From a virus (Duplodnaviria > Heunggongvirae > Uroviricota > Caudoviricetes): a stretch of 64,000 nucleotides of DNA. The DNA is taken from IMG/VR virus record IMGVR_UViG_2718218139_000001; one strand, 5' to 3'. The position numbers were made by a program, and so were the translations under genes. The notes under the pieces were generated by a model. That model was not told the DNA's origin and made no database searches. It saw only the letters and a program-made list of their open reading frames with translations. Every line of letters begins with the position of its first letter. The first letter of the stretch is position 1. Shown here one piece after another: positions 1,489 through 61,930 of this stretch.

Positions 1489-1507
1489 AAACGTTGGTTT
1501 GGGGGAA
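1482..1507 (+). other. crossover site 4 (hix/gix/cix-like)
   Basis: GGCATAAAAACG-TT-GGTTTGGGGGAA. Confidence 0.5.
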
Positions 1508-1927: not shown

Positions 1928-1946
1928 AAACGTTGGTTTAGGGGAA
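1921..1946 (+). other. crossover site 5 (hix/gix/cix-like)
   Basis: GGCATGAAAACG-TT-GGTTTAGGGGAA. Confidence 0.45.
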
Positions 1947-2441: not shown

Positions 2442-2460
2442 AAACGTTGGTTTAGGGGAA
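2435..2460 (+). other. crossover site 6 (hix/gix/cix-like)
   Basis: GGCATAAAAACG-TT-GGTTTAGGGGAA. Confidence 0.45.
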
Positions 2461-2880
2461 GGCTCGGCGCTGCCCGTTGGTGTACCTGTTCCATGGCCCT
2501 CCGCCACACCACCAACGGGGTGGCTGAAATGTAACGGAGCAGCATTTTCTTCTGAAAAGTACCCAAATCTGGCAAAGGTTTACCCCACTAATAAATTGCC
2601 GGATCTACGGGGCGAATTTATTCGAGGTTGGGATGATGGACGAGGTGTGGACAATGGGCGAGCATTATTAAGCAGCCAAGAGGCTACAAACTTTTCTCAG
2701 CGTGCCGGAAATATAGGCGATGGTGCAGGGCACGCAATTAATTTTCATGATGGCATCGTCGGAAATCAGCCAGGATTTTCACGATTTAATTTCACCAGTA
2801 ACTCTGTAGGTGATGGTATAAATTTTGTTGCTGTCAGGCCGCGAAATATCGCATTTAATTACATCGTAAGGGCGGCATAA
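2452..2880 (+). CDS. promoterless tail-fibre tip cassette 6
   Basis: open frame from site to stop at 2878-2880; ORF track 2596-2880 is its 3' part. Confidence 0.7.
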   Translation, partial: LGEGSALPVGVPVPWPSATPPTGWLKCNGAAFSSEKYPNLAKVYPTNKLPDLRGEFIRGWDDGRGVDNGRALLSSQEATNFSQRAGNIGDGAGHAINFHDGIVGNQPGFSRFNFTSNSVGDGINFVAVRPRNIAFNYIVRAA

Positions 2881-2899
2881 AAACGTTGGTTTAGGGGAA
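2874..2899 (+). other. crossover site 7 (hix/gix/cix-like)
   Basis: GGCATAAAAACG-TT-GGTTTAGGGGAA. Confidence 0.45.
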
Positions 2900-3388
2900 G
2901 GCTCGGCGCTGCCCGTTGGTGTACCTATTCCATGGCCCTCAGCCACACCGCCAACGGGGTGGCTGAAATGCAATGGTGCAGCATTTTCTTCTGAAAAGTA
3001 CCCAAATCTGGCAAAGGTTTACCCAACGTTAAAATTACCTGATTTACGCGGTGAGTTTATCCGTGGCTGGGATGATGGGCGAGGGATTGACTCTGGTCGC
3101 TCTATTTTAAGCGAGCAAGGATATGCAACGGAGGATCATGCTCACGGATTACCGTCAAAATCAACCGTAGCAACTGACCGCTCAATTAATTTCTACTTTG
3201 ACGAGGCATGGGCTACTAGTGGTAATACGGGAGTTATCAGATGGGGGAACACAAGCGATGCAGGATTGCCAGCCCCTAATTATGGAACTTTTAAAACATA
3301 TAAACAGTCCGTAGCTAATTTAGGTACTGCTGGCTTAGAAACCCGCCCTCGTAATATTGCATTTAATTATATTGTGAGGGCGGATTAA
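2891..3388 (+). CDS. promoterless tail-fibre tip cassette 7
   Basis: manual translation in frame: conserved N block ... ETRPRNIAFNYIVRAD then TAA at 3386-3388; no start codon so absent from ORF track. Confidence 0.65.
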   Translation, partial: LGEGSALPVGVPIPWPSATPPTGWLKCNGAAFSSEKYPNLAKVYPTLKLPDLRGEFIRGWDDGRGIDSGRSILSEQGYATEDHAHGLPSKSTVATDRSINFYFDEAWATSGNTGVIRWGNTSDAGLPAPNYGTFKTYKQSVANLGTAGLETRPRNIAFNYIVRAD

Positions 3389-4005: not shown

Positions 4006-6584
4006 TATGCTGCTCTCACAATATAATTGAAGGCAATGTTACGTGGGCGGGTTTCATTCCCCCCAGATAACTCCGTTCTGTATTGACTGGTAAATTTACC
4101 ATTAATCGCTCCTTGCCGGACGGCGTTATCTGTCGACAACAGACTATCCCCCCCTCTGTCATTTGGCACCAATACCGTGTTATCCCACGCGTCCCATGAC
4201 CGAATATTATGATAATGACTTCCTGTTAACCACCCCTGTATGCTTAAGATGACCCTTCCCGCATCCACACCTCGCCCATCATCCCAACCACGGATAAACT
4301 CACCGCGTAAATCCGGTAATTTATTGGTGGGGTAGGCCTTTGCCAGTTTGGGATACATTTCAGAAGAAAATGCTGCACCATTGCATTTTAGCCAGCCCGT
4401 TGGTGGTGTTTCTAAGGGCCACGGAACGGGCACACCAACAGGCAGTGCAGAGCCTTCCCCCAAACCAAGGTAATCAAGAACGCTCTGAATACTGGTCTTA
4501 CCAAGAATGGCGCGTCCAACACTTGTCAATGCAGTTAACGCGGCACGATCAACACCTGTGAAATAAGGGAGTTTATCTGCTGCTGTAGCTAGTGCCGCTA
4601 GAGCAGTGAGCGTAGCGTCTGCCGCTTGCTTTCCATTAGCCAAATCATATGCAGCCTTGACAGCTTTCGGTGTGGCGGCCAGCACTTCAGACGTGCTGTT
4701 AGTGGCACTACTGAGCTGAGTGATGCCTTTCGCTGTCAATGAAGCTGTTGGCACACCAGTGATCTGATTCCAGGGATGTGTATGACTGGATGGTGCCTTT
4801 CCGGCTGCTAGATCGTATGCAGCTTTAACCGCTTTTGGAGTTGCAGCTAATGTTTCAGAAGTGCTGTTGGTGTCGCTACTGAGCTGAACTATCCCTTTTT
4901 GTGTCGTGGTTGCATCCTGGGCTGTATACTTCCCGTTAGCCAAATCATATGCAGCCTTGACAGCTTTCGGTGTGGCGGCCAGCACTTCGGACGTACTGTT
5001 AGTGGCACTACTGAGCTGAGTGATGCCTTTCGCTGTCAATGAAGCTGTTGGCACACCAGTGATCTGATTCCAGGGATGTGTATGACTGGATGGTGCCTTT
5101 CCGGCTGCTAGATCGTATGCAGCTTTAACCGCTTTTGGAGTTGCAGCTAATGTTTCAGAAGTGCTGTTGGTGTCGCTACTGAGCTGAACTATCCCTTTTT
5201 GTGTCGTGGTTGCATCCTGGGCTGTATACTTCCCGTTAGCCAGGTCATATGCAGCCTTGACAGCTTTCGGTGTGGCGGCCAGCACTTCAGACGTGCTGTT
5301 AGTGGCACTACTGAGCTGAGTGATGCCTTTCGCTGTCAATGAAGCTGTTGGCACACCAGTGATCTGATTCCAGGGATGTGTATGACTGGATGGTGCCTTT
5401 CCGGCTGCTAGATCGTATGCAGCTTTAACCGCTTTTGGAGTTGCAGCTAATGTTTCAGAAGTGCTGTTGGTGTCGCTACTGAGCTGAACTATCCCTTTTT
5501 GTGTCGTGGTTGCATCCTGGGCTGTATACTTCCCGTTAGCCAGGTCATATGCAGCCTTGACAGCTTTCGGTGTGGCGGCCAGCACTTCAGACGTGCTGTT
5601 AGTGGCACTACTGAGCTGAGTGATGCCTTTCGCTGTCAATGAAGCTGTTGGCACACCAGTGATCTGATTCCAGGGATGTGTATGACTGGATGGTGCCTTT
5701 CCGGCTGCTAGATCGTATGCAGCTTTAACCGCTTTTGGAGTTGCAGCTAATGTTTCAGAAGTGCTGTTGGTGTCGCTACTGAGCTGAACTATCCCTTTTT
5801 GTGTCGTGGTTGCATCCTGGGCTGTATACTTCCCGTTAGCCAGGTCATATGCAGCCTTGACAGCTTTCGGTGTGGCGGCCAGCACTTCGGACGTACTGTT
5901 AGTGGCACTACTGAGCTGAACTAATCCCTTTTGCGTTGTGCTTGCATCCTGCGCCGTATATTTGCTTTTCGCCAGATCGTAGGCTTTTTTAACTGCCAGC
6001 GAACTCGCAGCAACATCACTTCTGGTACTGGTTACAGAGTCTGAAATATCAATGCCGATCGTGCGGTTGATACGCTCGGATGTATCAATCATCTCTTGAG
6101 TAATGGTAGATACGCCAGCAGGGATATTCACCGTACAAACCAGCAGTTCCCCATCACCTAACTGATATGAATCGGTATAGGTTCTGGCAACAAATTCAGC
6201 TGCATGAATATGTGACGCGGTATTCACCTGATAGGTATCTTCTCCAAGAAGGTATCTTCCCTTCAGCACAATTGCATATTTCTTGCCTGCGTTAAGTGCA
6301 AGAGAGATATCCTTACGATGCTGAATAGTTACCTGGTAGAATTCACCAATATCCACTGACGCCGCGCCAGCGGTTTTATCTCCATCCACTGAGGTGATTA
6401 ACAGGTTCATTCCACCGCCAGGCTTAGGCAAGAAACCAGCATAAAATCCCGGGTCAACAATTCCCCTGAATTTTCGGTTTAGAGCGGCTGACAGATATGG
6501 TTCGTGGTATTGCACATCAGCCACCAGAGCCAACGACTCGGGTGATGGGTAAGTAACCGATGTAACAACTGTAACGTCATTCAT
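4005..6584 (-). CDS. tail fibre protein (P1 S-like): constant part, repeat shaft and currently expressed tip
   Basis: ORF track 4005-6671; start placed at ATG 6584 preceded by AAGGA; C-terminus carries the same conserved blocks as the cassettes. Confidence 0.85.
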   Translation of the reverse strand: MNDVTVVTSVTYPSPESLALVADVQYHEPYLSAALNRKFRGIVDPGFYAGFLPKPGGGMNLLITSVDGDKTAGAASVDIGEFYQVTIQHRKDISLALNAGKKYAIVLKGRYLLGEDTYQVNTASHIHAAEFVARTYTDSYQLGDGELLVCTVNIPAGVSTITQEMIDTSERINRTIGIDISDSVTSTRSDVAASSLAVKKAYDLAKSKYTAQDASTTQKGLVQLSSATNSTSEVLAATPKAVKAAYDLANGKYTAQDATTTQKGIVQLSSDTNSTSETLAATPKAVKAAYDLAAGKAPSSHTHPWNQITGVPTASLTAKGITQLSSATNSTSEVLAATPKAVKAAYDLANGKYTAQDATTTQKGIVQLSSDTNSTSETLAATPKAVKAAYDLAAGKAPSSHTHPWNQITGVPTASLTAKGITQLSSATNSTSEVLAATPKAVKAAYDLANGKYTAQDATTTQKGIVQLSSDTNSTSETLAATPKAVKAAYDLAAGKAPSSHTHPWNQITGVPTASLTAKGITQLSSATNSTSEVLAATPKAVKAAYDLANGKYTAQDATTTQKGIVQLSSDTNSTSETLAATPKAVKAAYDLAAGKAPSSHTHPWNQITGVPTASLTAKGITQLSSATNSTSEVLAATPKAVKAAYDLANGKQAADATLTALAALATAADKLPYFTGVDRAALTALTSVGRAILGKTSIQSVLDYLGLGEGSALPVGVPVPWPLETPPTGWLKCNGAAFSSEMYPKLAKAYPTNKLPDLRGEFIRGWDDGRGVDAGRVILSIQGWLTGSHYHNIRSWDAWDNTVLVPNDRGGDSLLSTDNAVRQGAINGKFTSQYRTELSGGNETRPRNIAFNYIVRAA
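4455..4480 (-). other. crossover site inside expressed tail-fibre gene (inverted relative to cassette sites)
   Basis: TTCCCCCAAACC-AA-GGTAATCAAGAA on + strand; homology with cassettes begins exactly at the core; outer half-site TTCTTGATTACC resembles hixL half-site. Confidence 0.55.
4635..5918. repeat. about 4.3 tandem copies of a near-identical 300-bp coding repeat in the fibre shaft
   Basis: sequence lines 4681-4920, 4981-5220, 5281-5520, 5581-5820 are essentially identical; encodes repeated LAATPKAVKAAYDLA units. Confidence 0.9.
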
Positions 6585-50816: not shown

Positions 50817-52079
50817 ATGAGCACTTCAGCACAAAACCAATCAATCGAAAATGTATCTATCCCTGATGTCCTGAATGCCGGTATCCCGGCCATTATCCAG
50901 AACATCCGGGCCGCGCAACGCCGCGTTAGTTGTGATGACCTCACAGCACGTTTTTTTGATAATGCGGTTCAGTCAGCGGAGATGCTTCACGCACAGCTTA
51001 TTGATGTTTATAACGCAGAAGCTGATAGCCATAACTCCCTGGTAGATGCAGCTGAAAATATGCAGTTGGATCTCGGTCTGAAGGGTAAAGAAATTGAAGA
51101 GCTTCAGCTGCAAATTGAACATTTGAAACGCCAGCAACAGGACGCGATCGACGATGCGACGCATGACGCCAACCAGCGTGCTGATAATGCCGAACGTATA
51201 AGCATTGAGCTGGAAACAAAACTCAATGAAATGACCGCGATGGTTGAACTGCGGAACTCACAGATTTCAACGCTAAAATCTCAATATAAAGAGATCATGA
51301 AACTTGATCCTTTTAACCTTGAGAAACGCTATAACAAAGCTAAAAGCGAGCGACAGGAACTGCGTAAGCAGGTCGCTGACCTTAACCAACAGCTCAAAAA
51401 AACTATTAAAGATGCAAGCGAAGCGCGCGTGGCATTTGCTAATAAAAAAGCAGAGGTTACCGCGCTGGTTAATGAGAATGCCAAATTTGCGACGCTCAAG
51501 AAGGAAATGTATGGCATTACTGAGCGCCGTTTCCCTGCAAGCAAACTTCATCCGACGTTAGGGCAAATCTCCTTCTTCCCGCGCCTCCTGGCTTATGGGA
51601 TCTCATCGCCTAAAGAGTTCAATAACGAGCGTCCTTATATCGTTTCTAAGCTGGACTTTGCTTATCAGTTCTGCTGCGACATGGGCTATGCCATTGATAT
51701 CCGAATCAACGAATGGTTGATGCCAAACTTCCAGCCGTTGGCAATTTTCCGCGAGTTCCAGCCGGAAGGTTGGGTAGAGTTCTTCCATGAATTGATCTGT
51801 AAAGAGATGGAAAGCCGCCGCCCGGAATTGGTCCGTCGAGTTGAGTGGGCGCAAGAGGTTATGTTGGCAGATGCAGAGCTGCCGTTCGAACCGGAATTCA
51901 TTGATGATCTGGCAACTAAAGGGCTGCATACCCTGTTTGATGTGGTTACCCGCCGTCATGAGCAGTTGGTTGTCGAATTGGGTTTAGAGGAAACTGCGGC
52001 AAGAAGACTTCTCGATGTTTGCTATGCACGTAGCGATGCATGGGAAAAAGAGAACGGCGGCACTATTTACGTTCGCTGA
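50817..52079 (+). CDS. coiled-coil protein
   Basis: ORF track 420 aa; heptad-rich central region. Confidence 0.55.
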   Translation: MSTSAQNQSIENVSIPDVLNAGIPAIIQNIRAAQRRVSCDDLTARFFDNAVQSAEMLHAQLIDVYNAEADSHNSLVDAAENMQLDLGLKGKEIEELQLQIEHLKRQQQDAIDDATHDANQRADNAERISIELETKLNEMTAMVELRNSQISTLKSQYKEIMKLDPFNLEKRYNKAKSERQELRKQVADLNQQLKKTIKDASEARVAFANKKAEVTALVNENAKFATLKKEMYGITERRFPASKLHPTLGQISFFPRLLAYGISSPKEFNNERPYIVSKLDFAYQFCCDMGYAIDIRINEWLMPNFQPLAIFREFQPEGWVEFFHELICKEMESRRPELVRRVEWAQEVMLADAELPFEPEFIDDLATKGLHTLFDVVTRRHEQLVVELGLEETAARRLLDVCYARSDAWEKENGGTIYVR

Positions 52080-52098
52080 TAGTTACAGTGTCACTTTT

Positions 52099-52133
52099 AA
52101 TGCTGGTGGAGTGCTCCCACCAGCATTTTTTTC
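52099..52133 (+). terminator. rho-independent terminator containing Chi on both strands
   Basis: AATGCTGGTGG-loop-CCACCAGCATT then TTTTTTT; GCTGGTGG at 52102. Confidence 0.65.
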
Positions 52134-52151
52134 GTCCAATGAGGAGGGCAT

Positions 52152-52658
52152 TTGAGTATTTTCAATAAACACGCACACCAGGAACGTCCGTACATCGTCA
52201 TAGTAGATATTGATGGGACGATATCAGAGGCAACGGAAGACAGGCTGCATTTACTTCCACCACCTGGCAAAGGTGCATTAACAGAGCACTGGAACGAGTT
52301 TAACCTTGCCTGTGACACTGATGCTCCCATCACTTCAGTTATTGATATGGTGCGCCAGTTGTCCGGCATTTACACCCTCTGGTTTGTAACCGGGCGCTGT
52401 GAGATAGCCAGGGATAAAACACGAGCCTGGTTGCGTAAGCACGTAACAAATGGGACTGAGCCTTTGCTATCTATGCGTCCTGCCACCGATGACAGAAATG
52501 ACGGTCCAGCAAAGATTGATCTCCTGAAGAAAATTGGTCTAAGTAAAATTGCGTTCGCGCTGGAAGATAAGATTGACGTGGCGCGTGTTTTCAGGAGTCA
52601 CGGCGTACTTACGTTAATGGTCAGGGAGTATGAAAACGCGCTTCTCCATCAACAATAA
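52152..52658 (+). CDS. HAD-superfamily phosphatase
   Basis: ORF track 168 aa; motif I VIVDIDGTI, motif II WFVTGR. Confidence 0.55.
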   Translation: MSIFNKHAHQERPYIVIVDIDGTISEATEDRLHLLPPPGKGALTEHWNEFNLACDTDAPITSVIDMVRQLSGIYTLWFVTGRCEIARDKTRAWLRKHVTNGTEPLLSMRPATDDRNDGPAKIDLLKKIGLSKIAFALEDKIDVARVFRSHGVLTLMVREYENALLHQQ

Positions 52659-52674
52659 TTGCTCTAATAAATCT
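52658..52674 (+). promoter_or_regulatory. C1 operator (16/17) overlapping stop codon
   Basis: ATTGCTCTAATAAATCT. Confidence 0.55.
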
Positions 52675-52756
52675 TGATTTTTAAAACAGAGAAAGTGAAA
52701 ATAAAAACATGCCGCAAGGCGCGGCATGTATCCAATCAATCACAGGAGCTGAAAAT

Positions 52757-52843
52757 ATGAACACGGCATTCAAAATCATTATGGCCGCGATCTATTTCTG
52801 GCTGTTCTCTATCACTTTTGGCGGCATCGTCGCGCATGGGTAA
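52757..52843 (+). CDS. 28-aa hydrophobic peptide
   Basis: AGGAG before ATG; MNTAFKIIMAAIYFWLFSITFGGIVAHG; below ORF-track cutoff. Confidence 0.35.
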   Translation: MNTAFKIIMAAIYFWLFSITFGGIVAHG

Positions 52844-52852
52844 GGGGGATGC

Positions 52853-53581
52853 ATGAAAGGCGAAGTGAAAGAGCGCGGCATGATTTTCAACGATGAGATG
52901 GTCCGAGCCATCCTCGAAGGAAGGAAAACGCAGACGCGGCGGATAATGAAAAATCAGCCTGCGGAAGTTGGTCCAGAAGCACCAGTGATGGTTAGGGAAA
53001 TTGGTGCAGGTTTTCAGTGGTACGGGGCTGATGGTGTAAGCAGTGTTTTCAATTGCCCCTTTGGTATCGTCGGCGATCGAATTTGGGTTCGTGAAACATG
53101 GACGATATTAGGCAATGAAGATGGTTGCAGTGTGGACTGGAACGACAACCTTTGTCGTGGCGATGAGAAGAACGCAGCAAGGATTTATCGGGCCAGTTGT
53201 GAGCAAAAACCTGGTGATTACGGCTTATGGTCGATACCCGATGATGCCGACTGGAAACCTCACACTGTGAATGAAAAGTTTGATGGTGGGTGGCGTCCAT
53301 CAATTCACATGCCGCGATGGGCATCACGCATTCTGTTGGAAATTACCAACGTGCGCGTTGAACGGTTGAACGATATCAGCGAATGCGATGCAAGGGCTGA
53401 GGGCGTTCCGCCTGCTGGAAGTTTGCTTCCTGATCACCCGGGAACATTCCTTACTCCCAAGAGGGATTTCGCAATGGCCAAGGTTGCGTTCCAGCGCCTG
53501 TGGGAATCCATCTATGGTGAAGAAAGCTGGAACGCTAATCCCTGGGTGTGGGTAATCGAGTTTAAGCGCATTCAGGAATAA
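52853..53581 (+). CDS. ASCH/PUA-like domain protein
   Basis: ORF track 242 aa; N-terminus MIFNDEMVRAILEGRKTQTRR. Confidence 0.5.
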   Translation: MKGEVKERGMIFNDEMVRAILEGRKTQTRRIMKNQPAEVGPEAPVMVREIGAGFQWYGADGVSSVFNCPFGIVGDRIWVRETWTILGNEDGCSVDWNDNLCRGDEKNAARIYRASCEQKPGDYGLWSIPDDADWKPHTVNEKFDGGWRPSIHMPRWASRILLEITNVRVERLNDISECDARAEGVPPAGSLLPDHPGTFLTPKRDFAMAKVAFQRLWESIYGEESWNANPWVWVIEFKRIQE

Positions 53582-53590
53582 ACCGTGAGT

Positions 53591-53668
53591 ATGCATCAAA
53601 TCGTCAGTTTTTCAGGTGGACGAGCATCGGCCTGTCTCGTTCATCTGTTCGAAGAGGTAGTGGCATGA
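53591..53668 (+). pseudogene. truncated remnant of PAPS-reductase-like gene (PP-loop N-terminus only)
   Basis: 25 codons MHQIVSFSGGRASACLVHLFEEVVA then stop; SFSGG(K/R).S is the N-terminal PP-loop of PAPS reductase family. Confidence 0.35.
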
Positions 53669-53868
53669 CAATCGTAAAAACCCATACCGGCACCGTGATC
53701 ACCAAAGACGGGCCGCAGGTAAAAAAACTGCACCAAACAGAGCGGATGTGGGTCGTCGGCAAAAATGAGTTTTACCACAAAGATACCGGACGCCGCCACT
53801 TTGCAGAAAATACGCGCCGTCGACTGCTGTTAGACACCATCAAGCCTATCGAGGTGAAGCATGTTTAA
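53665..53868 (+). CDS. small hypothetical protein
   Basis: ORF track 67 aa. Confidence 0.45.
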   Translation: MTIVKTHTGTVITKDGPQVKKLHQTERMWVVGKNEFYHKDTGRRHFAENTRRRLLLDTIKPIEVKHV

Positions 53869-54100
53869 ACAGAACGAAAAAGCTATCGCTCAAATTGCTG
53901 ATTATATCCCGCGTGCGTGCCGGGGTATGCAGTTGCAGGAAGCCAAAGCGCGCCTGGAGAAAAAAATTGCGCTCTATATTGATGACGGCTGTGATGCTGC
54001 CGTTCTTAACGCGGCGTTCGCACCAGCTCTTAACAGTCATACTCGGGAGTCTTTTTTTTCGTGCATCGAAGCGCAACTCCGCAAAGGAGGCAGCCAGTGA
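53861..54100 (+). CDS. small hypothetical protein ending ..LRKGGSQ
   Basis: ORF track 79 aa; C-terminal junction CGCAAAGGAGGCAGCCAGTGA shared with two other genes. Confidence 0.45.
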   Translation: MFKQNEKAIAQIADYIPRACRGMQLQEAKARLEKKIALYIDDGCDAAVLNAAFAPALNSHTRESFFSCIEAQLRKGGSQ

Positions 54101-54798
54101 GCGAAATTAATTACCGGGCACTGCGTGAGATAGCAAAACAGGCAACACAGGGCGAATGGGTCGCATTTATTTCGCCGGGTACTGGTACGTATGCGGTGCA
54201 TACGCCCGGTGATAAACGATGTGAAGACGTTATCAAATGGACCGGCTTTGATGGACTGAAAAACGCAGAGAACAACGCTCGTTATATTGCCGCATTCAAC
54301 CCAAAGGTTGCACTGGAGCTACTTGGTGAAATTAAGCGCCTGGAGGACACAAATATTGATGCTATGTGCCGAATAGCACCGCTTGAGACTAAGCTCGCGG
54401 CTCTGGTGGCAGAGAACGCTGGGCTGAAACACGCAATGGCTGTAACTCTTGATCATGTGTCGGTCACGGATGCAGGGCAGGCCGGAGTTGCTGCAATGAT
54501 TATCAACGATGCCCTACACCACAGCGAAACTCCAGCTACCGATGCTTTTCTGGCTGAAATTCGTGCGGAAGCACGCAACGAGGGGATTAACTATACCGCC
54601 AGCCGTCTTGCTGCTGCGTTCAATCACGGATTTATCAATAAGTCTTTGCGTGAAGTTTTCGACGTTACACGCATGATTTTGTCAGCGAAAGAAGAGTTGG
54701 CTAATGAAGCGCATCCGATTGATGGCCTGTCTGGTGAATATGCGGAGAAATCCCTTGAAGAATGGGCGGAACAGATTCGCAAAGGAAGCAGCCAGTGA
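54097..54798 (+). CDS. Ea22-like family protein, paralogue 1
   Basis: ORF track 54061-54798; GTG 54097 after AAAGGAGG; N-terminal SEINYRALRE, shared ATDAFLAEIRA block. Confidence 0.5.
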   Translation: MSEINYRALREIAKQATQGEWVAFISPGTGTYAVHTPGDKRCEDVIKWTGFDGLKNAENNARYIAAFNPKVALELLGEIKRLEDTNIDAMCRIAPLETKLAALVAENAGLKHAMAVTLDHVSVTDAGQAGVAAMIINDALHHSETPATDAFLAEIRAEARNEGINYTASRLAAAFNHGFINKSLREVFDVTRMILSAKEELANEAHPIDGLSGEYAEKSLEEWAEQIRKGSSQ

Positions 54799-55085
54799 AT
54801 ATCGACACGACAATAACGATCGATACGCTCCTAAATACCGGTCTGGCACTTCTCGGTTGGCTTTACATCATGTCCCGCACATGGCGATGGCTGGGTTCCA
54901 TTTTCCTAAAACAGTGGAAAAAACGGCGCAAACAGGAACTACGCCAGAAGGCATTAGAAGCGTTCTATGACGCATTTGAGCTTAGCCGCATTGAACCAGG
55001 TACAACAGCCAGGATAGCGACAAAAGGCGACCTGATGATAGTGATGTTCCGACAGGAGAGAGCAGAGAAAGGGGAATCAGCATGA
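54795..55085 (+). CDS. small membrane protein
   Basis: ORF track 54762-55085; GTG 54795 overlapping previous stop. Confidence 0.4.
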   Translation: MNIDTTITIDTLLNTGLALLGWLYIMSRTWRWLGSIFLKQWKKRRKQELRQKALEAFYDAFELSRIEPGTTARIATKGDLMIVMFRQERAEKGESA

Positions 55086-55816
55086 AAATTTCCAAATTTT
55101 CTGAGTTGGTGAATCGTATTTTGTCCAACAACCACAGCCATCGTCGCGATATGGATGTAACAATCGTTGTTCATTCGCCTGGCAGCATTGGTTCAACACC
55201 TTCAGTTGAGGTTCAGTCAATTCACGCTGGTTTTGATTGGGATTCCGGGAAAGTGCTTATTTTCCCATCACAGCCACTGACCACGCTAACACCAGAACAG
55301 ATTACTGATATCACTGATAGTGTGCGCAAAGGTCAGTCTTGGCACGCATATCAGGAATACAAGAAGCATCAAGAGCAGTTGGAAAAATTGTCGATTGAAC
55401 TGGATGCCGCAAAACAGCGCATTGCAGAGCTGGAGGGTAATCGCACGGCGCTGGCAGTGGAGAATGAGCTGGCTCGTAAGGCATTTCAGGCATTCTGCGA
55501 TGTTGTTGGCGACAACACCGAGGTTATCGCTGAGGTGGTTGGGCGAGATGGCGTTCTGGTTATTTTGAAGGCCATGAAGGCAACAGGAAATATGTCAGCC
55601 ACCGACGCTTTCTTGGCTGAAGTCCGGGCGCAGGGGGTGGATGCTGCTATAGAAGCTGCAAAAAATCTGGTGGCCCAAGAATATGAGTATAAGGATTTCA
55701 AAGCGGCGCAGAGTGATTGCTGTATGCACCCTGGTTCAGACCTGGTAGGGAAGGTTGAAATGACTGAGTGGTTAGTTGACTTTGCTGCCCAGCTTCGCAA
55801 AGGAGGCAACCAGTGA
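55082..55816 (+). CDS. Ea22-like family protein, paralogue 2
   Basis: ORF track 244 aa; shares ATDAFLAEVRA block and ..LRKGGNQ end. Confidence 0.5.
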   Translation: MKISKFSELVNRILSNNHSHRRDMDVTIVVHSPGSIGSTPSVEVQSIHAGFDWDSGKVLIFPSQPLTTLTPEQITDITDSVRKGQSWHAYQEYKKHQEQLEKLSIELDAAKQRIAELEGNRTALAVENELARKAFQAFCDVVGDNTEVIAEVVGRDGVLVILKAMKATGNMSATDAFLAEVRAQGVDAAIEAAKNLVAQEYEYKDFKAAQSDCCMHPGSDLVGKVEMTEWLVDFAAQLRKGGNQ

Positions 55817-56112
55817 CTGTATGTCTTATTGATAAACGTCGACGTGGGCAACAAATACCATCTGTTGAAATGCCGAATCACACATGGTTTTGCGTACTTG
55901 ATATCGATGGTATGGATACGTTGGTTGACACTCGTCATTACTGCGATACCGCAACAGCTACTCCGGCGAAAGCAAAGAAAATGGCTGCTCTGATAGAAAA
56001 CTGGACTCCACCTGATGGTTGGTGCAATGGGAATGATCGAGATTGGCACGAAAAAATGAAGGGCTATATCTGCGATTTTTTACGTAAATGCAACGGCTTC
56101 AGGGTGATGTGA
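55813..56112 (+). CDS. small hypothetical protein
   Basis: ORF track 99 aa. Confidence 0.45.
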   Translation: MTVCLIDKRRRGQQIPSVEMPNHTWFCVLDIDGMDTLVDTRHYCDTATATPAKAKKMAALIENWTPPDGWCNGNDRDWHEKMKGYICDFLRKCNGFRVM

Positions 56113-56113
56113 T

Positions 56114-56599
56114 ATGACCAAAATTAACTATCAGGCACTGCGTGAGGCGGCAGAACGTGCAATTCCGGCAATGGAACGCCTGTTAATGTTGCCAGTTGAT
56201 GATGATCTGATAAGCGAACAGGAACTTAAAGATTACGGTGTGGATATTGATGCGCTCAACGCCTTCAAATTTCTGGCCGGACCAGAAACCGTGCTGGCAC
56301 TACTGGATGAACGGGAAAGAAACCAGCAATACATCAAATCCCGCGACCAGGAGAACGAGGATATTGCGCTAACGGTAGGGAAGTTGCGCGTTGAGCTTGA
56401 GGCAGAAAAACAGCGGGCAAAGGATCTGTTTATGGAAAATGCTCGGCTTAAGTCAGGTATAGCCGGTCTGATACACCTCGGTATTCGATATGCAGATGTT
56501 GATGTCATGAAAATTGCTGGAGATGCCCAGCTTTCTACCCCATGCACTGACAGCATCATAAACAGCATTGCAACAGGCATTCGCATCAAAGGAGAGTGA
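56114..56599 (+). CDS. Ea22-like family protein, paralogue 3
   Basis: ORF track 161 aa; N-terminal KINYQALREAAE. Confidence 0.5.
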   Translation: MTKINYQALREAAERAIPAMERLLMLPVDDDLISEQELKDYGVDIDALNAFKFLAGPETVLALLDERERNQQYIKSRDQENEDIALTVGKLRVELEAEKQRAKDLFMENARLKSGIAGLIHLGIRYADVDVMKIAGDAQLSTPCTDSIINSIATGIRIKGE

Positions 56600-56600
56600 T

Positions 56601-56810
56601 ATGGCTATCGCTGCAAGTTACACCATGCATCTCTATTGTGACTGCCGCCAGTGTACGGAAGGTGTATATCCAGTGCCAGACTTCGGTGAGTATATCGGTA
56701 CGTCATGGTCTGGTTGTGCAAAAGAGGCCCGTAAAGACGGGTGGCGAATAAGTAAAGACAAAACACGTGCTTTTGCGCCCGGGCATAAAGTTTTGAGGAT
56801 TAACAAATGA
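56601..56810 (+). CDS. small Cys-rich protein
   Basis: ORF track 56568-56810; ATG 56601 after AAAGGAGAGTGAT; CDCRQC. Confidence 0.4.
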   Translation: MAIAASYTMHLYCDCRQCTEGVYPVPDFGEYIGTSWSGCAKEARKDGWRISKDKTRAFAPGHKVLRINK

Positions 56811-57169
56811 CCACTATTACCAAAGAACGTATCGAATTATTCATTAAAAATCCGCTTGATAACGGGCTTACCCGTGGCGAACAAATGGAACTGGCACGAA
56901 TTGCGCTGGCATCACTGGAAGCCGAACCGGTTGCAGTAAACGACGACATGGCTTACGCATTCCATCACGCATTGTCAGATTCATCGCTAGGCGCTGATGA
57001 AGTAGAGGAAATTAAGGCCGGTTTGCGTGCTGCCTTTGCCAACGTCACTATCCAACCAGAGCCGGTAGTGCCGGATGAAATCGAGCCAGACGATAGCAAT
57101 ACGTTTGATTATGTTGATGGCTGGAACGCCTGCCGCGCTGCCATGCTTCAGGGTAAGGGAGATGAGTAA
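56807..57169 (+). CDS. hypothetical protein, N-terminal paralogue of 58044-58613
   Basis: ORF track 120 aa; shared MTTITKER..ELARIALASLEAEPV. Confidence 0.5.
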   Translation: MTTITKERIELFIKNPLDNGLTRGEQMELARIALASLEAEPVAVNDDMAYAFHHALSDSSLGADEVEEIKAGLRAAFANVTIQPEPVVPDEIEPDDSNTFDYVDGWNACRAAMLQGKGDE

Positions 57170-57345
57170 TGCGTGTGGCATTTTTCGGCTTGTTACCGTA
57201 CCCGACTCGTTTTTGGGCTTCTGCGCTAATTGCAAAGCCACATGTCCTGATGGCTGACAACATCATCCCGGCACCAAAGCGCCGCCATACCGGTATTGCA
57301 GCGGCACGACGAGCAGCAAAGAGACGCAGGAGAGCAAAGCGATGA
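57169..57345 (+). CDS. small basic protein
   Basis: 58-codon ORF, ATG overlaps previous stop, Arg/Lys-rich C-terminus; below ORF-track cutoff. Confidence 0.3.
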   Translation: MRVAFFGLLPYPTRFWASALIAKPHVLMADNIIPAPKRRHTGIAAARRAAKRRRRAKR

Positions 57346-57530
57346 AAAACCGTAAAGCAAAGATTCTGTTAGTTCGTAGAAACGCTCCTGGCGTCTGGCA
57401 GTGGGTGAGACTCAGCAACCGACGGATGGGGTTGATGAAATATTACGGGATGATGGATTGTGGTTTTTGCAAAAAGCCCAGCGCGGCGCAAAACCGCTGG
57501 AAAAACCACTTGCGCACTAAAGGAGAGTGA
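57342..57530 (+). CDS. small hypothetical protein
   Basis: ORF track 62 aa; ATGA overlap with previous ORF. Confidence 0.3.
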   Translation: MKNRKAKILLVRRNAPGVWQWVRLSNRRMGLMKYYGMMDCGFCKKPSAAQNRWKNHLRTKGE

Positions 57531-57531
57531 T

Positions 57532-58047
57532 ATGGCGTTAACACACCGCGAACTCTGTCAGATTGCGTATAAGTTCCTTAAGCGCAACGGGTTCAAGGTT
57601 TGTTTTCATGACCGCTTTATAGCTGTAACCAGTACCGGAGAACAGCCAGATGCTATGGGATTCAGAAATTCAGCATCATGCCTGATAGAGGCGAAGTGTT
57701 CTCGTGCTGACTTGTTGGCAGATAGAAAAAAGCGTTTTCGTAAAAATCCATCTCTTGGAATGGGCGACTGGCGATTCTTTATTAGTGAGCCGGGAATTAT
57801 TTCAGTTGAGGATTTACCACCTGGCTGGGGATTACTTCACGTTGTTAACGGAAGAGTACGGAAAGTACATGGGTGGCCCAAGGGTAATTGCTGTTGGGGT
57901 AATCCTGACGATAAGCCATTTACTGGAAATAAGCAGGTTGAATGCGATTACATGTTATCTGCATTAAGGCGCATGGAGTTGAGAGGGCACCTTAATGAAA
58001 TATATGACGGTGTAATTGTTAATAAGAAAGAAGGAAACGCGGCATGA
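57532..58047 (+). CDS. MmcB-like PD-(D/E)xK nuclease family protein
   Basis: ORF track 57460-58047; ATG 57532 after AAAGGAGAGTGAT; ..PDAMGF..CLIEAKCSRADL. Confidence 0.5.
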   Translation: MALTHRELCQIAYKFLKRNGFKVCFHDRFIAVTSTGEQPDAMGFRNSASCLIEAKCSRADLLADRKKRFRKNPSLGMGDWRFFISEPGIISVEDLPPGWGLLHVVNGRVRKVHGWPKGNCCWGNPDDKPFTGNKQVECDYMLSALRRMELRGHLNEIYDGVIVNKKEGNAA

Positions 58048-58613
58048 TCACTATTACCAAAGAGCGACTGCTGACAATCAAGCAGTGGCGCGAAACATAC
58101 GGACCGGGTAGCAACGTTGTACTGCCAGCAGAAGAAGCGGAAGAACTGGCACGAATTGCTCTGGCATCGCTGGAAGCAGAGCCTGTAAACCAAACTTACA
58201 ACTTACCAGAATTAATCGAAGGCATGGAAGTTTCCATTGATGTAAGCACTTGTGATGCTGATTTAGGTAATCGCTATTTCGGCACCGTCACCGAGGCGTT
58301 AGAACTTGATACAGCCAAGAATGGTTACATCCTCCTGGTTCAGGACGCAGAGCCAAACTTCGATGTAAATGGCAACTCTCCGGTAACTCCGGATGGCTGG
58401 ATAAGCTGTAGTGAGCGAATGCCGGATACCAAAACAGCCGTTCTTGTTGCCAGGGAGTTTGACAGGAAAGGTGACTGGCGAATGAAATGGGCGACTTACA
58501 TCCCGGGGCATCCTGACGCTAATGATGGGTGGGTAATACCTGGTGCGTCGTGGATACCATCACACTGGATGCCGCTACCAGAACCGCCGCAGGAGGCGAA
58601 AAGATGGATGTAA
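58044..58613 (+). CDS. DUF551-like phage protein
   Basis: ORF track 189 aa; C-terminal DGWISCSERMPD..W..W. Confidence 0.5.
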   Translation: MITITKERLLTIKQWRETYGPGSNVVLPAEEAEELARIALASLEAEPVNQTYNLPELIEGMEVSIDVSTCDADLGNRYFGTVTEALELDTAKNGYILLVQDAEPNFDVNGNSPVTPDGWISCSERMPDTKTAVLVAREFDRKGDWRMKWATYIPGHPDANDGWVIPGASWIPSHWMPLPEPPQEAKRWM

Positions 58614-58861
58614 AAGAGAAGGTTTTGCAGGTGATGCGTTACCGGGCTGCCCTGCAAGATAAAGCTCTCGGCGGGGAATATCCATTCAGGATGGCAACCT
58701 GGAATCTGCGGTTGGCAATGGAGAAGGAATTTCCTGATGAAGAATGGCGTTCGGCAGATTTGCGCAAAATTCTTATGGAGCTGGCTAAAGACGGAACAGT
58801 ATCCAAAGATACCCATGCCAGCCGGATTGGTCAGGCGGTATGGAGACTGGAGGTGAGGTAA
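58604..58861 (+). CDS. small hypothetical protein
   Basis: ORF track 58529-58861; ATG 58604 after AGGAGG. Confidence 0.45.
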   Translation: MDVKEKVLQVMRYRAALQDKALGGEYPFRMATWNLRLAMEKEFPDEEWRSADLRKILMELAKDGTVSKDTHASRIGQAVWRLEVR

Positions 58862-59142
58862 TGGCTAACCTGCAACTTGCCGTTAAAGGTGAATACTTCG
58901 ATGCCATGATTCGCGGGGAGAAAACGGAAGAGTATCGCCTGTGTAATGACTACTGGAATAAGCGCCTCGTTAACCGTAAGTATTACCGCCTGATTATCAC
59001 AAAGGGATATCCGAAGCGCGAAGACTTCAGTCGCAGAATTGACGTCCCGTATAACGGATATGAAATAAAAACAATCACACATCCACACTTCGGTGATAAA
59101 CCGGTAAAGGTGTTCGCGATAAAAGTGAAGATTAATAGCTAA
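58861..59142 (+). CDS. ASCH-like small protein
   Basis: ORF track 58840-59142; ATG 58861 after GGAGGTGAGG; LAVKGEYFDAMIRGEKTEEYR. Confidence 0.45.
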   Translation: MANLQLAVKGEYFDAMIRGEKTEEYRLCNDYWNKRLVNRKYYRLIITKGYPKREDFSRRIDVPYNGYEIKTITHPHFGDKPVKVFAIKVKINS

Positions 59143-59165
59143 ATTTCAATTAACACGGAGTAATT

Positions 59166-59459
59166 ATGTGGCGCGGTAATAATCATGGCGGAAGTCAGAT
59201 GATACTTACCGAATATACGTTCGACCACAAAACCAATAAATCACGTTCAGTATATTTGCTTCGGCACAATAGCCGCGTAAGAAATACCGTTCTGGAGCAA
59301 AATCTGACCGTTGAAATGGATAATTTGGGAAACTTCAAGCCAACAATATCGCTTGATGATTTTCCGTGTGGTTTAAGCGAAAGAGAAGCAATGCTGAAAT
59401 TAGCAGAATGGCTACAAAGATTAAGCATTGCTATTGAAGATAACTGGTCTGAACCTTAA
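59166..59459 (+). CDS. small hypothetical protein
   Basis: ORF track 97 aa. Confidence 0.45.
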   Translation: MWRGNNHGGSQMILTEYTFDHKTNKSRSVYLLRHNSRVRNTVLEQNLTVEMDNLGNFKPTISLDDFPCGLSEREAMLKLAEWLQRLSIAIEDNWSEP

Positions 59460-59465
59460 ATTAAT

Positions 59466-59840
59466 ATGATGACACTAAAACATTTTCTTGACCGCCCATT
59501 ATGGGCGGCAGCCGCAGGCTATGACTTTAATTATATGGATTGCATGTCTTATACTGCCAATGCATACGACCATTCGTTCAGCCTGCTGTTTAATTCTTTA
59601 AGAATATTGCCGGAAACAGAAGTTGGAGAGCTTCATTTATGGATATTGGGCTTTATCGCGGCTGGAGTTGGTATTGCCGTATGGCCTTTTATTTTCTGGC
59701 TGGTGGCTGTTGTAGTGTGGTTTAAGTGCAAGACGTACCGGAAAAAGTATTTCTTAGGTGATGGAATGACTGATATTGCCAAAATGAACATTGAAAAATG
59801 GACTAAGGAATGTGAAAAGAAATGGCGCAAAAAGAAATGA
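59466..59840 (+). CDS. small membrane protein
   Basis: ORF track 124 aa; hydrophobic helix LWILGFIAAGVGIAVWPFIFWLVAVVVWF. Confidence 0.45.
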   Translation: MMTLKHFLDRPLWAAAAGYDFNYMDCMSYTANAYDHSFSLLFNSLRILPETEVGELHLWILGFIAAGVGIAVWPFIFWLVAVVVWFKCKTYRKKYFLGDGMTDIAKMNIEKWTKECEKKWRKKK

Positions 59841-60496
59841 CTACTCTAACGACAGCATACTTACAGCAATTGGTATTTTTTGCAGGCGAGGCTACTTGTC
59901 ATCCTGACGCAAACTATTTATTGGAATTTGAGAGGTTAGCGTCACCCGGTATCGTTCTGGAACTGGCCCAACAGGTGCTGGCCTTGAGACAAAAAGAGCA
60001 ACATAAAAGTAATACGTGTAGATTGAATTTTGAGCAGTGGCTGGAACAGCAACGCGGAAAAATCGATGTGGACTGTGGTTGTGTGTCCACTGAAACATTC
60101 ATGCACTGGCTGCGGGTAGCTTACGAGGCTGGCAACTATCCGGATATTCCGGATAGTTCGGTGCCAGCGCCAGGAAAGGGCGTCACCGGTGAACGTATCC
60201 GCATTAAGCCGCATGTTTATCGCGAACTGGTTAACCGTCTCCACGATACAGCGATCAAGTGTGCTGGCACCCAGCAATTACGAGAAAGAATTAGCCGTGT
60301 TTTGGGCGACGTTATTACGCCATATCATCATAAACAAGCCGAGAAAAGCGGTCTGGAAAGGTGTCATCTTGAGGCAGCATTAAACATTAAGCCGGGGCAT
60401 ACGCTTGGCATTATTGATGCACTGTTGGTTCATAAGATGGCCAGGGCTTTATTGTCGTTGGTGGACGCTGGTGATACAAGCGAGGGTGAAGTATGA
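59822..60496 (+). CDS. hypothetical protein
   Basis: ORF track 224 aa. Confidence 0.5.
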   Translation: MAQKEMTTLTTAYLQQLVFFAGEATCHPDANYLLEFERLASPGIVLELAQQVLALRQKEQHKSNTCRLNFEQWLEQQRGKIDVDCGCVSTETFMHWLRVAYEAGNYPDIPDSSVPAPGKGVTGERIRIKPHVYRELVNRLHDTAIKCAGTQQLRERISRVLGDVITPYHHKQAEKSGLERCHLEAALNIKPGHTLGIIDALLVHKMARALLSLVDAGDTSEGEV

Positions 60497-60855
60497 GAGT
60501 TGCAGATCACATCAAACACCTTGAAAGAATTATCGAAAACGGTGAACTCTTAAGAGATCAGATGAGACGCACGGCAGAAGCCAGGGAGGCGATAATCCAC
60601 AGTCAGGCTGGTAAATTAAAGCAATTGTCAGAGATTAACACGCTATACAAGAACAGACGTAACCGGGCGGTGATGCGGCTTCAGAAAGCACGTAATGAAA
60701 TTAAATTGGTGGAGGCAAAACTGAAAAAACAGATCCAGCGTTACGATCAGCAAGATGCTTTTTATGCCGCCATCAAGGCGGCTGCTAATGAAATAGGCAT
60801 CTGGAAGTTGCTGGTGGAGAAAGCAAAGACGAAGTTAAATGCCAACGAAAGCTGA
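60493..60855 (+). CDS. hypothetical coiled-coil protein
   Basis: ORF track 120 aa, last gene of operon. Confidence 0.5.
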   Translation: MRVADHIKHLERIIENGELLRDQMRRTAEAREAIIHSQAGKLKQLSEINTLYKNRRNRAVMRLQKARNEIKLVEAKLKKQIQRYDQQDAFYAAIKAAANEIGIWKLLVEKAKTKLNANES

Positions 60856-60930
60856 ACTACAGGTGCCCACCAGCACATACAGAAAATGATTGTTTCCACA
60901 TCAAGGAGATTTTAATGTTTCACTGAAACA

Positions 60931-61068
60931 TTAAGTAAGCCAGTGCATAATTCCATTTTTTACTGACCTTAAAAGCAAAATCAAAACGATGATGAGGATA
61001 ATAGCCAGAATCTGGCTAATAATAGGCGCATCTAAAAATGCACTCAGGAACTGAAAAAAAGCGTTCAT
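60931..61068 (-). CDS. 45-aa hydrophobic peptide
   Basis: MNAFFQFLSAFLDAPIISQILAIILIIVLILLLRSVKNGIMHWLT; single TM helix; in otherwise non-coding AT-rich region. Confidence 0.3.
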   Translation of the reverse strand: MNAFFQFLSAFLDAPIISQILAIILIIVLILLLRSVKNGIMHWLT

Positions 61069-61930
61069 TCAGGTGGTTCCTTGTCAAATGTAAAGGTGCA
61101 CTTGCTCACGTTGACGTAGAAACCCAACCCCTATATAGTTGGATTCGGTGAATGAAAGTCGTTAACGTGAGCTTACGGCACATGTTTTCGGAAAAACATC
61201 AGGGAACGGCTAATTCCTTGATGCGGGTGGGGTCTGTAATGCAGACCCTATCTATTAACGTCATGATTGCATCTCAAATTTTCTCCTTATCTTCAATTAA
61301 TCTACATTCATTTCATCTGTTAGCCACCACAATATGTAGAAAATGGCCCTCTTGCAAGTGCATAACTTTGTGGATAACTCAGGAAGGAAAAAGTGGCTTT
61401 CGCGCACCTTCGGTCAGACAAGGTGTCCGGGAAAGTCAACGCAAAGAAAAAAATTGTTAAAAATAACGTTTGTTGGAATTGTATATTTTTATCCCCTTCA
61501 ATGGTTAGCATTCTATTAACATCTTTTTTTAGAGACAGAAAAACATATCGTAACAACATATATACAGTATTAAGAGGCGAGTATTATCCTGCGGTGGGAA
61601 TTCTGGGCGCTGTTAGATTCGACTTTCTCAGCAGGATTACATCGTCAACTTGCGACGTTGCCGTATGACTTTCGTGTAATAGGTGACAATGATGCGGCTA
61701 GTGAGTTACTTGTGAAGTTTTTCGGAAAAGGTTTTGTGGCCTCGGATCTTGATGAGCTACAGCAACATGAAGTGTCTAATTTGATTTTTAGCCATAGCCA
61801 ATAAGCCTCCCTCCTCCATCAAGGCCACAATTTGTGACCTTAAACAATTTGTTTTCTGCTTTTTCTTATTTGAGAAAATAACGTTGTTGACAGCTAATAG
61901 GCTCGTTGTTGTTATACATGCCTGTATAGA

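Follow-up and report, generated by a model that had tools for sequence, protein, structure and literature searches.

The window analysed here is a 64,000-nucleotide (nt) stretch of a Caudoviricetes genome (IMG/VR record IMGVR_UViG_2718218139_000001). Our subject is an array of small genes at its positions 53,591 to 60,855, together with the short sequences that recur at the junctions of these genes. The 8.5 kb around this segment were 100% identical to the Escherichia coli plasmid pCFSAN004177G_03 (CP012494.1; 96 kb, replicon type IncY), a P1-family phage-plasmid, and two further plasmids matched the entire segment at 99.7% identity. The surrounding backbone belongs to the P1 family, as reference P1 (NC_005856) was 98.1% identical to the window over 51001-53547 and 94.4% identical over 60121-61476, the two being colinear from pap through Op88 into the 5' part of pmgT on the left and from the 3' part of pmgU through pmgV and upfM on the right. 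The local order in P1 is pap, C1 operator Op88, pmgT, pmgU, and pmgV. In the window, the same pap, Op88, and PmgV enclose a far longer array (Table 1).

A lambdoid-type gene array in a P1-family backbone

We found that 20 genes follow a gene remnant and are packed between 53665 and 60855. The distances at their junctions are -4 nt (nine times), -1 nt (twice), +1 nt (three times), and -8, -10, -19, +6, and +23 nt (once each). The preliminary description, made from the letters of the stretch and a list of its open reading frames (ORFs), had spoken of about 18 tightly packed small genes with overlaps, and this picture stands, most junctions being at -4, -1, or +1 nt. Judged by the homology to P1, C1 may act as a repressor at Op88 and control the expression of the whole array. 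A scan of the plus strand from 52.9 to 60.9 kb for internal promoters and terminators gave no convincing signals, and promoter-like sites were fewer than in shuffled sequences. This is compatible with a single operon but does not prove it.

The part from ~53.6 to 58.9 kb is of the lambdoid early-left accessory type, comprising PAPS reductase, Ead/Ea22, DUF4752, DUF7739, DUF551, and eaa genes and several unnamed families. Matches to it were widespread and patchy. Only 3 of the 882 matching plasmid records covered at least 80% of the segment, and the remaining records matched in 4-10 separate pieces. P1-like phage genomes covered 22-57% of the segment, and many Stx-converting and other lambdoid phages covered 17-32% at ~96% identity. 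In total, 606 phage records matched, most of them from Stx or other lambdoid phages, whose shared patches were 95-97% identical in nucleotides. The lambdoid phage Lys12581Vzw (Sepvirinae) has, next to exo/ssb, the order PAPS reductase, a 204-bp gene (g67), a 240-bp gene (g79), Ea22, a 516-bp gene (g171), DUF551, and eaa, with blocks of 94-97% identity to the window, and the pair g67-g79 follows the PAPS reductase there as well. The array thus resembles the exo-xis or 'ea' region of lambda, P22, and Stx phages in its homologous Ead_Ea22, DUF551, and eaa genes, in the gene order of Lys12581Vzw, and in its patches of high nucleotide identity. It differs in location and control: P1 backbone genes flank it and the C1 operator Op88 lies upstream of it, whereas the lambdoid region stands between exo and xis under pL.

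Table 1. Coordinates of the array genes, junction units, and flanking features in the window (amino acids, aa; SD, Shine-Dalgarno sequence)
Feature	Coordinates	Strand	Basis or remark
pap	52152-52658		P1 backbone
C1 repressor operator Op88/OpmgT (ATTGCTCTAATAAATCT), overlapping promoters, operon start	52658-52674	+	same sequence as the annotated operator of P1 (NC_005856)
g242, intact form of P1 'PmgT', 242 aa	52853-53581	+	97.8% identity to PmgT residues 1-232; phrog_874, function unknown
Segment absent from reference P1, 6,573 bp	53548-60120		P1 joint CCCTGGGT/TACGAGG, ~1 nt microhomology
PAPS-reductase remnant, 25 codons, MHQIVSFSGGRASACLVHLFEEVVA-stop	53591-53668	+	aligned to the intact CP088756 gene
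g67 (phrog_1226)	53665-53868	+	PHROG
g79 (phrog_1344)	53861-54100	+	PHROG
Motif 1 copy 1, CGCAAAGGAGGCAGCCAGTGA	54080-54100	+	last codons RKGGSQ-stop of g79, embedded SD AAGGAGG, GTGA stop/start overlap
Ea22a, Ead/Ea22-like, 233 aa	54097-54798	+	Pfam PF13935, E=3.3e-26
Motif 1 copy 2, 1 mismatch	54778-54798	+	RKGSSQ-stop
DUF4752 protein, 96 aa	54795-55085	+	Pfam PF15944, E=1.7e-42
g244 (phrog_368)	55082-55816	+	similarity to Ea22a limited to the C-terminal ~150 aa
Motif 1 copy 3, 1 mismatch	55796-55816	+	RKGGNQ-stop
DUF7739 protein, 99 aa	55813-56112	+	Pfam; cassette absent from CP088756
Ea22b, Ead/Ea22-like, 161 aa	56114-56599	+	Pfam PF13935, E=8.4e-32; end GIRIKGE-stop
Motif 2 copy 1, CGCATCAAAGGAGAGTGATATGGC	56582-56605	+	IKGE-stop, SD AAGGAG, TGA-T-ATG
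g69	56601-56810	+	four-gene block between the motif-2 copies
g120	56807-57169	+	four-gene block
Conserved gene head ATGACCACTATTACCAAAGAACG (MTTITKER), copy 1	56807-56829	+	
g58, 58-codon ORF	57169-57345	+	four-gene block
g62, 62 aa	57342-57530	+	four-gene block
Motif 2 copy 2, CGCACTAAAGGAGAGTGATATGGC	57513-57536	+	TKGE-stop
g171 (phrog_9263/631, function unknown)	57532-58047	+	PHROG
DUF551 protein, 189 aa, C-terminal DUF551 domain	58044-58613	+	Pfam PF04448, E=8.6e-21; MITITKER head at 58044-58066
eaa-type protein (phrog_2814)	58604-58861	+	PHROG
g93 (phrog_625), right end of the lambdoid-type part	58861-59142	+	PHROG; sub-threshold ASCH match
P1-family part: g97, g124, g224 (59822-60496, full-length form of P1 'PmgU'), PmgV (60493-60855)	59166-60855	+	P1 comparison

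Subsequently, we evaluated the family labels that the preliminary description had put on the array products. Two of the three proposed Ea22-like paralogues, Ea22a and Ea22b, were above the Pfam gathering score for Ead/Ea22. The third, g244, gave no Pfam Ead_Ea22 match and resembled Ea22a only in the region noted in Table 1 (27% identity, E=6e-5). The two paralogues said to share an MT(T/I)TITKER start are g120 and the DUF551 protein, which have their N-terminal 48 amino acids in common at 57% identity, and the DUF551 label itself was borne out by Pfam. Neither of the other two labels could be upheld. Considered as an MmcB-like or PD-(D/E)XK nuclease, g171 had no Pfam match even at E<=10, no NCBIfam match, and no PDB sequence match; a D…E-x-K pattern in its sequence is only suggestive, and its single-sequence AlphaFold model (pLDDT 49) was unusable. 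Of the proteins called ASCH-like, g93 gave only a sub-threshold match to Pfam ASCH (PF04266; E=0.082, 14.1 bits against a cut-off of 21.2, over 23 residues), and g242 matched no Pfam family, ASCH included. The RefSeq label 'ASCH domain-containing protein' is used in a near-identical plasmid, and the single-sequence AlphaFold model of g93 had a pLDDT of 42. Across the function labels, NCBIfam gave no matches, every PHROG match was of 'unknown function', PDB sequence searches found nothing significant, and relaxed Pfam searches returned only the sub-threshold ASCH match.

Two small ORFs of the region carry no annotation in CP012494. The first, g58, fills the sole gap in the array through junctions of -1 and -4 nt, ends in a very basic C terminus (…RRAAKRRRRAKR), and had no Pfam match. 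The second lies between Op88 and g242 on the plus strand (52757-52843). It encodes a 28-codon hydrophobic peptide (MNTAFKIIMAAIYFWLFSITFGGIVAHG), has AGGAG 8 nt upstream, and is conserved in P1, where it is not annotated either. A strong hairpin (52707-52729) stands just upstream of it.

Conserved units at the gene junctions

In nearly all genes of the array, the last codons are K-G-G- or K-G-E-like and encode the ribosome-binding site of the next gene, and three short units recur at the gene boundaries. Motif 1 (CGCAAAGGAGGCAGCCAGTGA) is present at 54080, 54778, and 55796, exactly where the preliminary description had placed it, with 0, 1, and 1 mismatches. It lies wholly within the last codons of the upstream gene (…CGCAAAGGAGGCARCCAGTGA, read as …L-R-K-G-G-S/N-Q-stop). 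Its AAGGAGG is a near-perfect Shine-Dalgarno (SD) sequence, 6 nt ahead of a GTG start that overlaps the TGA stop as GTGA. Motif 2 (AAAGGAGAGTGATATGGC) has exact copies at 56588 and 57519. The two copies had been reported 4-5 nt away, at 56583 and 57515, positions that are near the starts (56582 and 57513) of a longer 24-nt repeat, CGCAYYAAAGGAGAGTGATATGGC. Motif 2 (…CGCATCAAAGGAGAGTGAKATGGC) reads …(I/T)-K-G-E-stop, that is, AAAGGAGAG-TGA followed by one nucleotide and ATG. Chance repetition was ruled out for both motifs, as 100 shuffles yielded no match to motif 1 and no copy of motif 2 was expected in shuffled sequence. The third unit is a gene head of ~20-23 nt, ATGACCACTATTACCAAAGARCG (MTTITKER), which stands at the start of many genes that otherwise diverge and of which the window has copies at 56807 and 58044.

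To survey the partners of the two motifs, we scanned IMG/VR with a degenerate version of each, which gave at least 120 loci per motif, and clustered the 75 nt on each side of the motif into DNA types. Among the matches listed, to which all counts of this survey refer, motif 1 joined 22 upstream to 26 downstream DNA types in 73 combinations (104 unique contexts), and motif 2 joined 30 upstream to 20 downstream types in 56 combinations (96 contexts). Because the motifs served to select the loci, many of which are related to each other, these counts are descriptive and do not represent independent events. At the protein level, we took the complete flanking ORFs, trimmed the shared tails, and grouped the proteins by BLASTP single-linkage clustering. 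This gave 5 unrelated upstream and 15 downstream families for motif 1 and 5 unrelated upstream and 18 downstream families for motif 2. Thus, the same tails sit on non-homologous proteins. Many of the upstream ends at motif 1 carry a longer tail, FAAQLRKGGNQ, and many of the downstream genes open with an Ea22 head (MSEINYQALREAA). A search of lambdoid prophages for the same junction modules had been suggested beforehand, and the modules are indeed there: among the 204 listed loci with motif-bearing arrays, 63 had lambdoid early-left markers and 29 had P1 backbone markers.

Next, we asked at which position the association with the neighbors changes, assigning each flank to an upstream or downstream type by its distal 60 nt alone. 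Variable columns before the motif tracked the upstream type (0.6-0.75 of the entropy) and hardly the downstream type (~0.1), and the relation was reversed after the motif. Position 14 of motif 1, a polymorphism between S and N codons, tracked neither side, and positions -7 to -4 of motif 2, before the SD, tracked both. This pattern of association places the linkage switch within the ~20-25 nt of the motifs.

Individual elements provided examples of such exchanges. In plasmid CP088756, g79 with motif 1 is followed by an extra gene of 645 bp that is not Ea22, and g244 with motif 1 abuts an Ea22 start directly, without the DUF7739 cassette. In P7 and in Lys12581Vzw, Ea22 with motif 2 is followed directly by a g171-type gene. 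The window has a 931-bp block of four genes (g69, g120, g58, and g62; 56601-57530) between its two copies of motif 2, and this block is absent from both P7 and Lys12581Vzw. In CP088756 and P7, the cassette gains and losses have their ends exactly at the motifs. Over all loci, 44% of the endpoints of high-identity alignments fell within 20 nt of a gene junction, as compared to 12% for uniform positions. Further endpoint hotspots coincided with domain boundaries inside Ea22b, g120, and DUF551. Tight linkage was found only for g67>g79 (1.00 in 12 contexts), the only such pair of the lambdoid-type part, and for the backbone junctions; nearly all lambdoid-type junctions reassort.

Two observations concern fused forms of array genes. 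The 230-aa phrog_9263 matches g62 with its positions 1-61 and g171 with its positions 62-230, which means that in some phages a single fused protein is annotated, or encoded, in place of the two genes on either side of motif 2; loss of the motif-2 TGA would suffice for this fusion. P7 Upf89.5 (432 aa; locus L210, 6084-7382) appears to be another fusion, composed of an MTTITKER-type head, an unrelated middle, and the C-terminal ~163 aa of g224. In several relatives, homology to g224 starts at ~60000 (window ~60000-60006). Together with Upf89.5, this suggests that the N-terminal ~60 residues of g224 mark a recurrent intragenic exchange boundary.

The anatomy of the motifs also bears on the C terminus of the Ea22 proteins. 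All Ea22 proteins have been reported to end in K/R-G-E, with the significance of this ending left unknown; they share a conserved start and differ in the middle and C-terminal parts (Dydecka et al., PMC7093339). We used the spelling of these codons to distinguish constraint on nucleotides from constraint on amino acids. An earlier codon test had been uninformative, since 93 of its 108 contexts were selected by the scan pattern itself. To avoid this circularity, we sought K/R-G-E/G-stop peptide tails in loci ascertained by motif 1. Among the matches listed, ~59 of the 63 unique contexts with a K/R-G-E-stop tail were spelled AAAGGAGAGTGA (AAA-GGA-GAG-TGA), where 48 synonymous spellings are possible, and almost always a start codon stood 1 nt past the stop. 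Variants of motif 1 were often non-synonymous (R/H, K/Q, G/S, and S/N/K/D), and the SD core never changed. The nearly invariant spelling and the start 1 nt after the stop explain the tail and indicate, as far as codon usage can tell, that the K/R-G-E ending of Ea22 is the SD of the downstream gene plus a stop codon and not a protein motif.

Phage lambda itself offers a related case. Its ea22 (NC_001416, locus L209, ~29847) ends in GGCATTCGCATCAAAGGAGAGTGAGATCGG, which is motif 2 (GGCATTCGCATCAAAGGAGAGTGA) with the next start decayed to ATC, and ~190 nt without an annotated gene lie beyond this end. It looks like a relic of a junction whose downstream cassette was lost. We also looked for a relic of motif 1 upstream of lambda ea22 and found none.

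Reference P1 and the PAPS-reductase remnant

The preliminary description regarded the module as a replacement of an ancestral gene set and proposed alignment with P1 and other members of the family to delimit it. This alignment confined the difference to 53548-60120. P1 matched the window as far as 53547 and resumed at 60121, the two alignments meeting at a single P1 position, 85182 (locus L002, 4548). The P1 gene products at this point derive from two genes of the window: PmgT (309 aa) consists of residues 1-232 of g242 plus a 77-aa tail encoded in the +1 frame of g224 (70 of 77 residues identical), and PmgU (111 aa) is the C-terminal half of the 224-aa g224 protein. Of 173 matching plasmids, only 5 had the P1-type joint intact. 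The array is also present, in a shorter version, in P7, whose annotation records a similarity to P22 Ead. Flanks that meet at one point, the make-up of PmgT and PmgU, and the rarity of the joint together identify reference P1 as a rare 6,573-bp deletion derivative. Judged by these alignments, the array is the normal state of the P1 family, and pmgT and pmgU of P1 are deletion products.

This leaves the replacement of an ancestral P1 gene set highly improbable. In its favor, the window has ~6.6 kb of extra lambdoid-like genes relative to reference P1, and pmgT of JL22 has been called 'replaced' (PMC9603915). However, a replacement accounts neither for P1 flanks that meet at one point nor for a PmgT tail that is out-of-frame g224 and a PmgU that is the C-terminal half of g224, and the array version is found in P7 too.

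The locus has been described before with P1 as the baseline. It was listed as RD-5 (pap-lxr), a hotspot of difference among P1-like elements (PMC6906374), and as the variable region 8 (pmgT-humD), in which a cluster including an Ea22 gene takes the place of pmgT in JL22 (PMC9603915); it is thus one of 5-8 published difference hotspots. Our account differs from these in that P1 is the deletion derivative, the anatomy of the junctions is described, and the remnant is delimited. The literature accessible to us held no statement of a deletion origin of P1 pmgT and pmgU or of an SD basis of the Ea22 tail (Łobocka 2004, Gilcrease & Casjens 2018, and Clark 2001 lie outside this scope), and a literature search on pmgT and pmgU returned only PMC9603915.

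The remnant at the left end of the array records a second deletion. At the same place, CP088756 has an intact gene of 290 codons that matches Pfam PAPS_reduct (PF01507; E=2.8e-9, 37.7 bits against a cut-off of 22.5). The remnant had been described as keeping only the PP-loop N terminus of a PAPS-reductase-like gene. It is real but keeps both ends: the first ~19 codons, with the PP-loop SFSGGRAS, are joined in frame to the last 6 codons (FEEVVA-stop), and the whole is ~97% identical in nucleotides to the CP088756 gene. The deletion removed 795 bp (265 of 290 codons) and preserved the ATGA overlap with the next gene; its joint, CATCTG/TTCGAAG, has no exact microhomology. The 25-aa peptide has no Pfam match and so lacks a complete catalytic domain. 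The joint was intact in 92 of 158 matching plasmid records, which indicates an old, widely inherited lesion.

Explanations for exchange at the junctions

Together, these data make it likely that the segment is a hypervariable accessory-gene array of the C1-repressed 'pmgT' operon, in which exo-xis or 'ea' genes are exchanged as cassettes at translation-initiation junctions. The head-to-tail packing places the SD of each gene in the last codons of the preceding gene, with stop and start overlapping or 1 nt apart. In the mechanism that we propose, the cassettes would be whole genes or, in the case of Ea22, g120, and DUF551, domains within a gene as well, with the breakpoints concentrating at initiation junctions. 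The boundary units of 20-25 nt on unrelated genes (motif 1, motif 2, and the gene head) may have two roles. They would provide translational coupling for any gene that lands downstream, and they could act as short patches of homology for recombination between elements and between tandem copies, resulting in the gain or loss of cassettes. RecA of the host might be the enzyme involved, but annealing proteins of the Red/RecT type, supplied by lambdoid prophages in the same cell, are more plausible. Efficient recombination of diverged DNA by Red and of very short homologies by RecET (PMC2327257) suggests a plausible enzymology in cells that harbor both a P1-like plasmid and lambdoid prophages. The remnant is an old internal deletion, in frame, that kept the coupled start of the next gene.

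Several points weigh against this reading. Non-motif junctions reassorted about as often as motif junctions: over the 20 junctions of the window in both directions, the same-partner fraction was 0.00-0.38 for motif junctions and 0.05-0.57 for the others, in small and biased samples, and the motif is not demonstrably required. At some junctions, such as the DUF551 end, identity extended only through the embedded SD and broke a few nt before the start codon. Breaks just after the SD without further shared sequence are expected from illegitimate recombination followed by selection. A homology of 21-24 nt is at the lower limit for RecA-dependent recombination, and the partner counts, drawn from loci chosen by the motifs, are descriptive. 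Other non-motif junctions carry a conserved boundary element of their own, of which the MTTITKER gene head is the clearest. The two repeated motifs are thus a visible subset of a general shuffling at translation-initiation junctions. The proposal in the preliminary description, illegitimate or short-homology recombination at ribosome-binding-site, stop, and start modules, is therefore supported in substance by the partner swaps, the linkage switch, and the clustering of endpoints, but the process is not special to the two motifs.

The same observations can be read as illegitimate recombination at any position, followed by selection for intact, translatable genes, with the motifs conserved solely as good SD, stop, and start units that have no role in recombination. 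We regard this as rather unlikely, although it fits the reassortment of non-motif junctions, the breaks that share nothing beyond the SD, and an invariant part of the motifs that consists of the SD core and the stop/start. It also fits the two deletions characterized here (PAPS reductase and P1 53548-60120), whose 0-1 nt of microhomology show that illegitimate events do occur in this locus. What it does not account for are the remaining letters of the motifs. Function covers the ~8 nt of the SD and the stop/start but not identical spacers and flanks (CGC…GCARCCA; GGCATTCGCATC…; the 20-nt gene head) on at least five unrelated upstream families, when elsewhere in the same array the junctions are built quite differently, and the linkage switch maps inside the motif.

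Ordinary paralogy would instead make the motifs the conserved C-terminal coding end, and the gene head the N-terminal start, of duplicated Ea22-family genes. Motif 1 is wholly coding, Ea22a and g244 have their C-terminal ~150 aa in common, the FAAQLRKGGNQ tails and Ea22 heads are frequent on the two sides of the motif, and the largest upstream family comprises 69 of 98 proteins among the matches listed. Even so, we consider paralogy improbable as the explanation, because beyond the tail no similarity to Ea22 was detected for g79 (phrog_1344), for a 105-aa and a 175-aa family, or for a 77-aa protein. Motif 2 reaches across the stop into the start of the next gene, and Ea22b shares it with the unrelated g62. 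The identity of the motif DNA (95-100%) is also far above that of the adjoining coding sequence (27% amino acid identity). As a sole cause, Ea22 paralogy was thus rejected at the level of families. That the tails RKGGNQ and KGE are selected as amino acids, for example as a recognition or degradation tag, is scarcely credible: it would account for the conserved K/RGE end of all Ea22 proteins, but the essentially invariant synonymous sites, the start 1 nt after the stop, and the non-synonymous changes around a fixed SD core are those of a nucleotide signal, and the codon analysis rejected a motif at the protein level. We also give little credence to a dedicated plug-and-play cassette system of lambdoid prophages and P1-family plasmids built on the boundary units, which would then be more than passive homology. 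Such a system might be stimulated by an array product, either g171, which is often directly downstream of motif 2, or Ea22, with its conserved ends and variable middles. If it existed, the RKGGNQ and KGE tails on unrelated proteins would be its by-products.

The exchange of modules at short conserved boundaries is a known phenomenon, and the array is a further, well-resolved case of mosaicism in a phage locus whose variability was already on record; it represents no new kind of element. Short conserved boundary, or linker, sequences were proposed for lambdoid mosaicism by Susskind & Botstein 1978 and Clark et al. 2001 (HK620), according to PMC3029335 and PMC2327257. This model is usually contrasted with illegitimate recombination, as such sequences are rarely seen. 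The likeness to the present case, within what these sources relate, lies in short conserved sequences at gene or module junctions in a subset of related phages, proposed as substrates of homologous recombination, among early non-essential lambdoid genes. Here, too, the same short sequence stands between unrelated flanking genes, and exchange points map to the conserved sequence. The units described here are SD and stop/start units inside coding tails, also occur in P1-family plasmids, and coincide with the linkage switch, and most junctions of the array reassort without a repeated motif. Integron cassette arrays are similar by analogy only, in their co-oriented, small, promoterless, interchangeable genes and short recurrent separators. 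Unlike integrons, the array has no integrase and no attC-like imperfect inverted repeats, its recurrent units are translation-initiation units in coding sequence, and exchange would proceed by general or annealing recombination.

The array provides a clean, quantifiable natural case of module exchange at short conserved boundary sequences, a model often set aside because such sequences are usually unseen. It shows that, in E. coli, genes flow between P1-type plasmid prophages and integrated lambdoid prophages, those of Stx phages included, and it offers a simple account of the K/R-G-E end of Ea22. Comparisons that take P1 as baseline, and functional work on 'PmgT/PmgU', should allow for the 6.57-kb deletion, which few of the natural relatives share.

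Two further observations lie outside the array. At 61668-61676, the window has an empty site where P7 carries IS903 (locus L210, 8563-9619); the flanking alignments overlap by 9 nt, which is consistent with a 9-bp target-site duplication. At the other end of the window, and apart from the junction motifs, we found exact repeats (period 300 nt, up to 593 nt long) at 4636-5900 and at least five copies of 40-175 nt segments at 119-3000 (a repeat region of ~100-3000). Given where they lie in a P1-like genome, they probably represent repeats of the tail fibre and, in the invertible segment, its alternative C-terminal cassettes.

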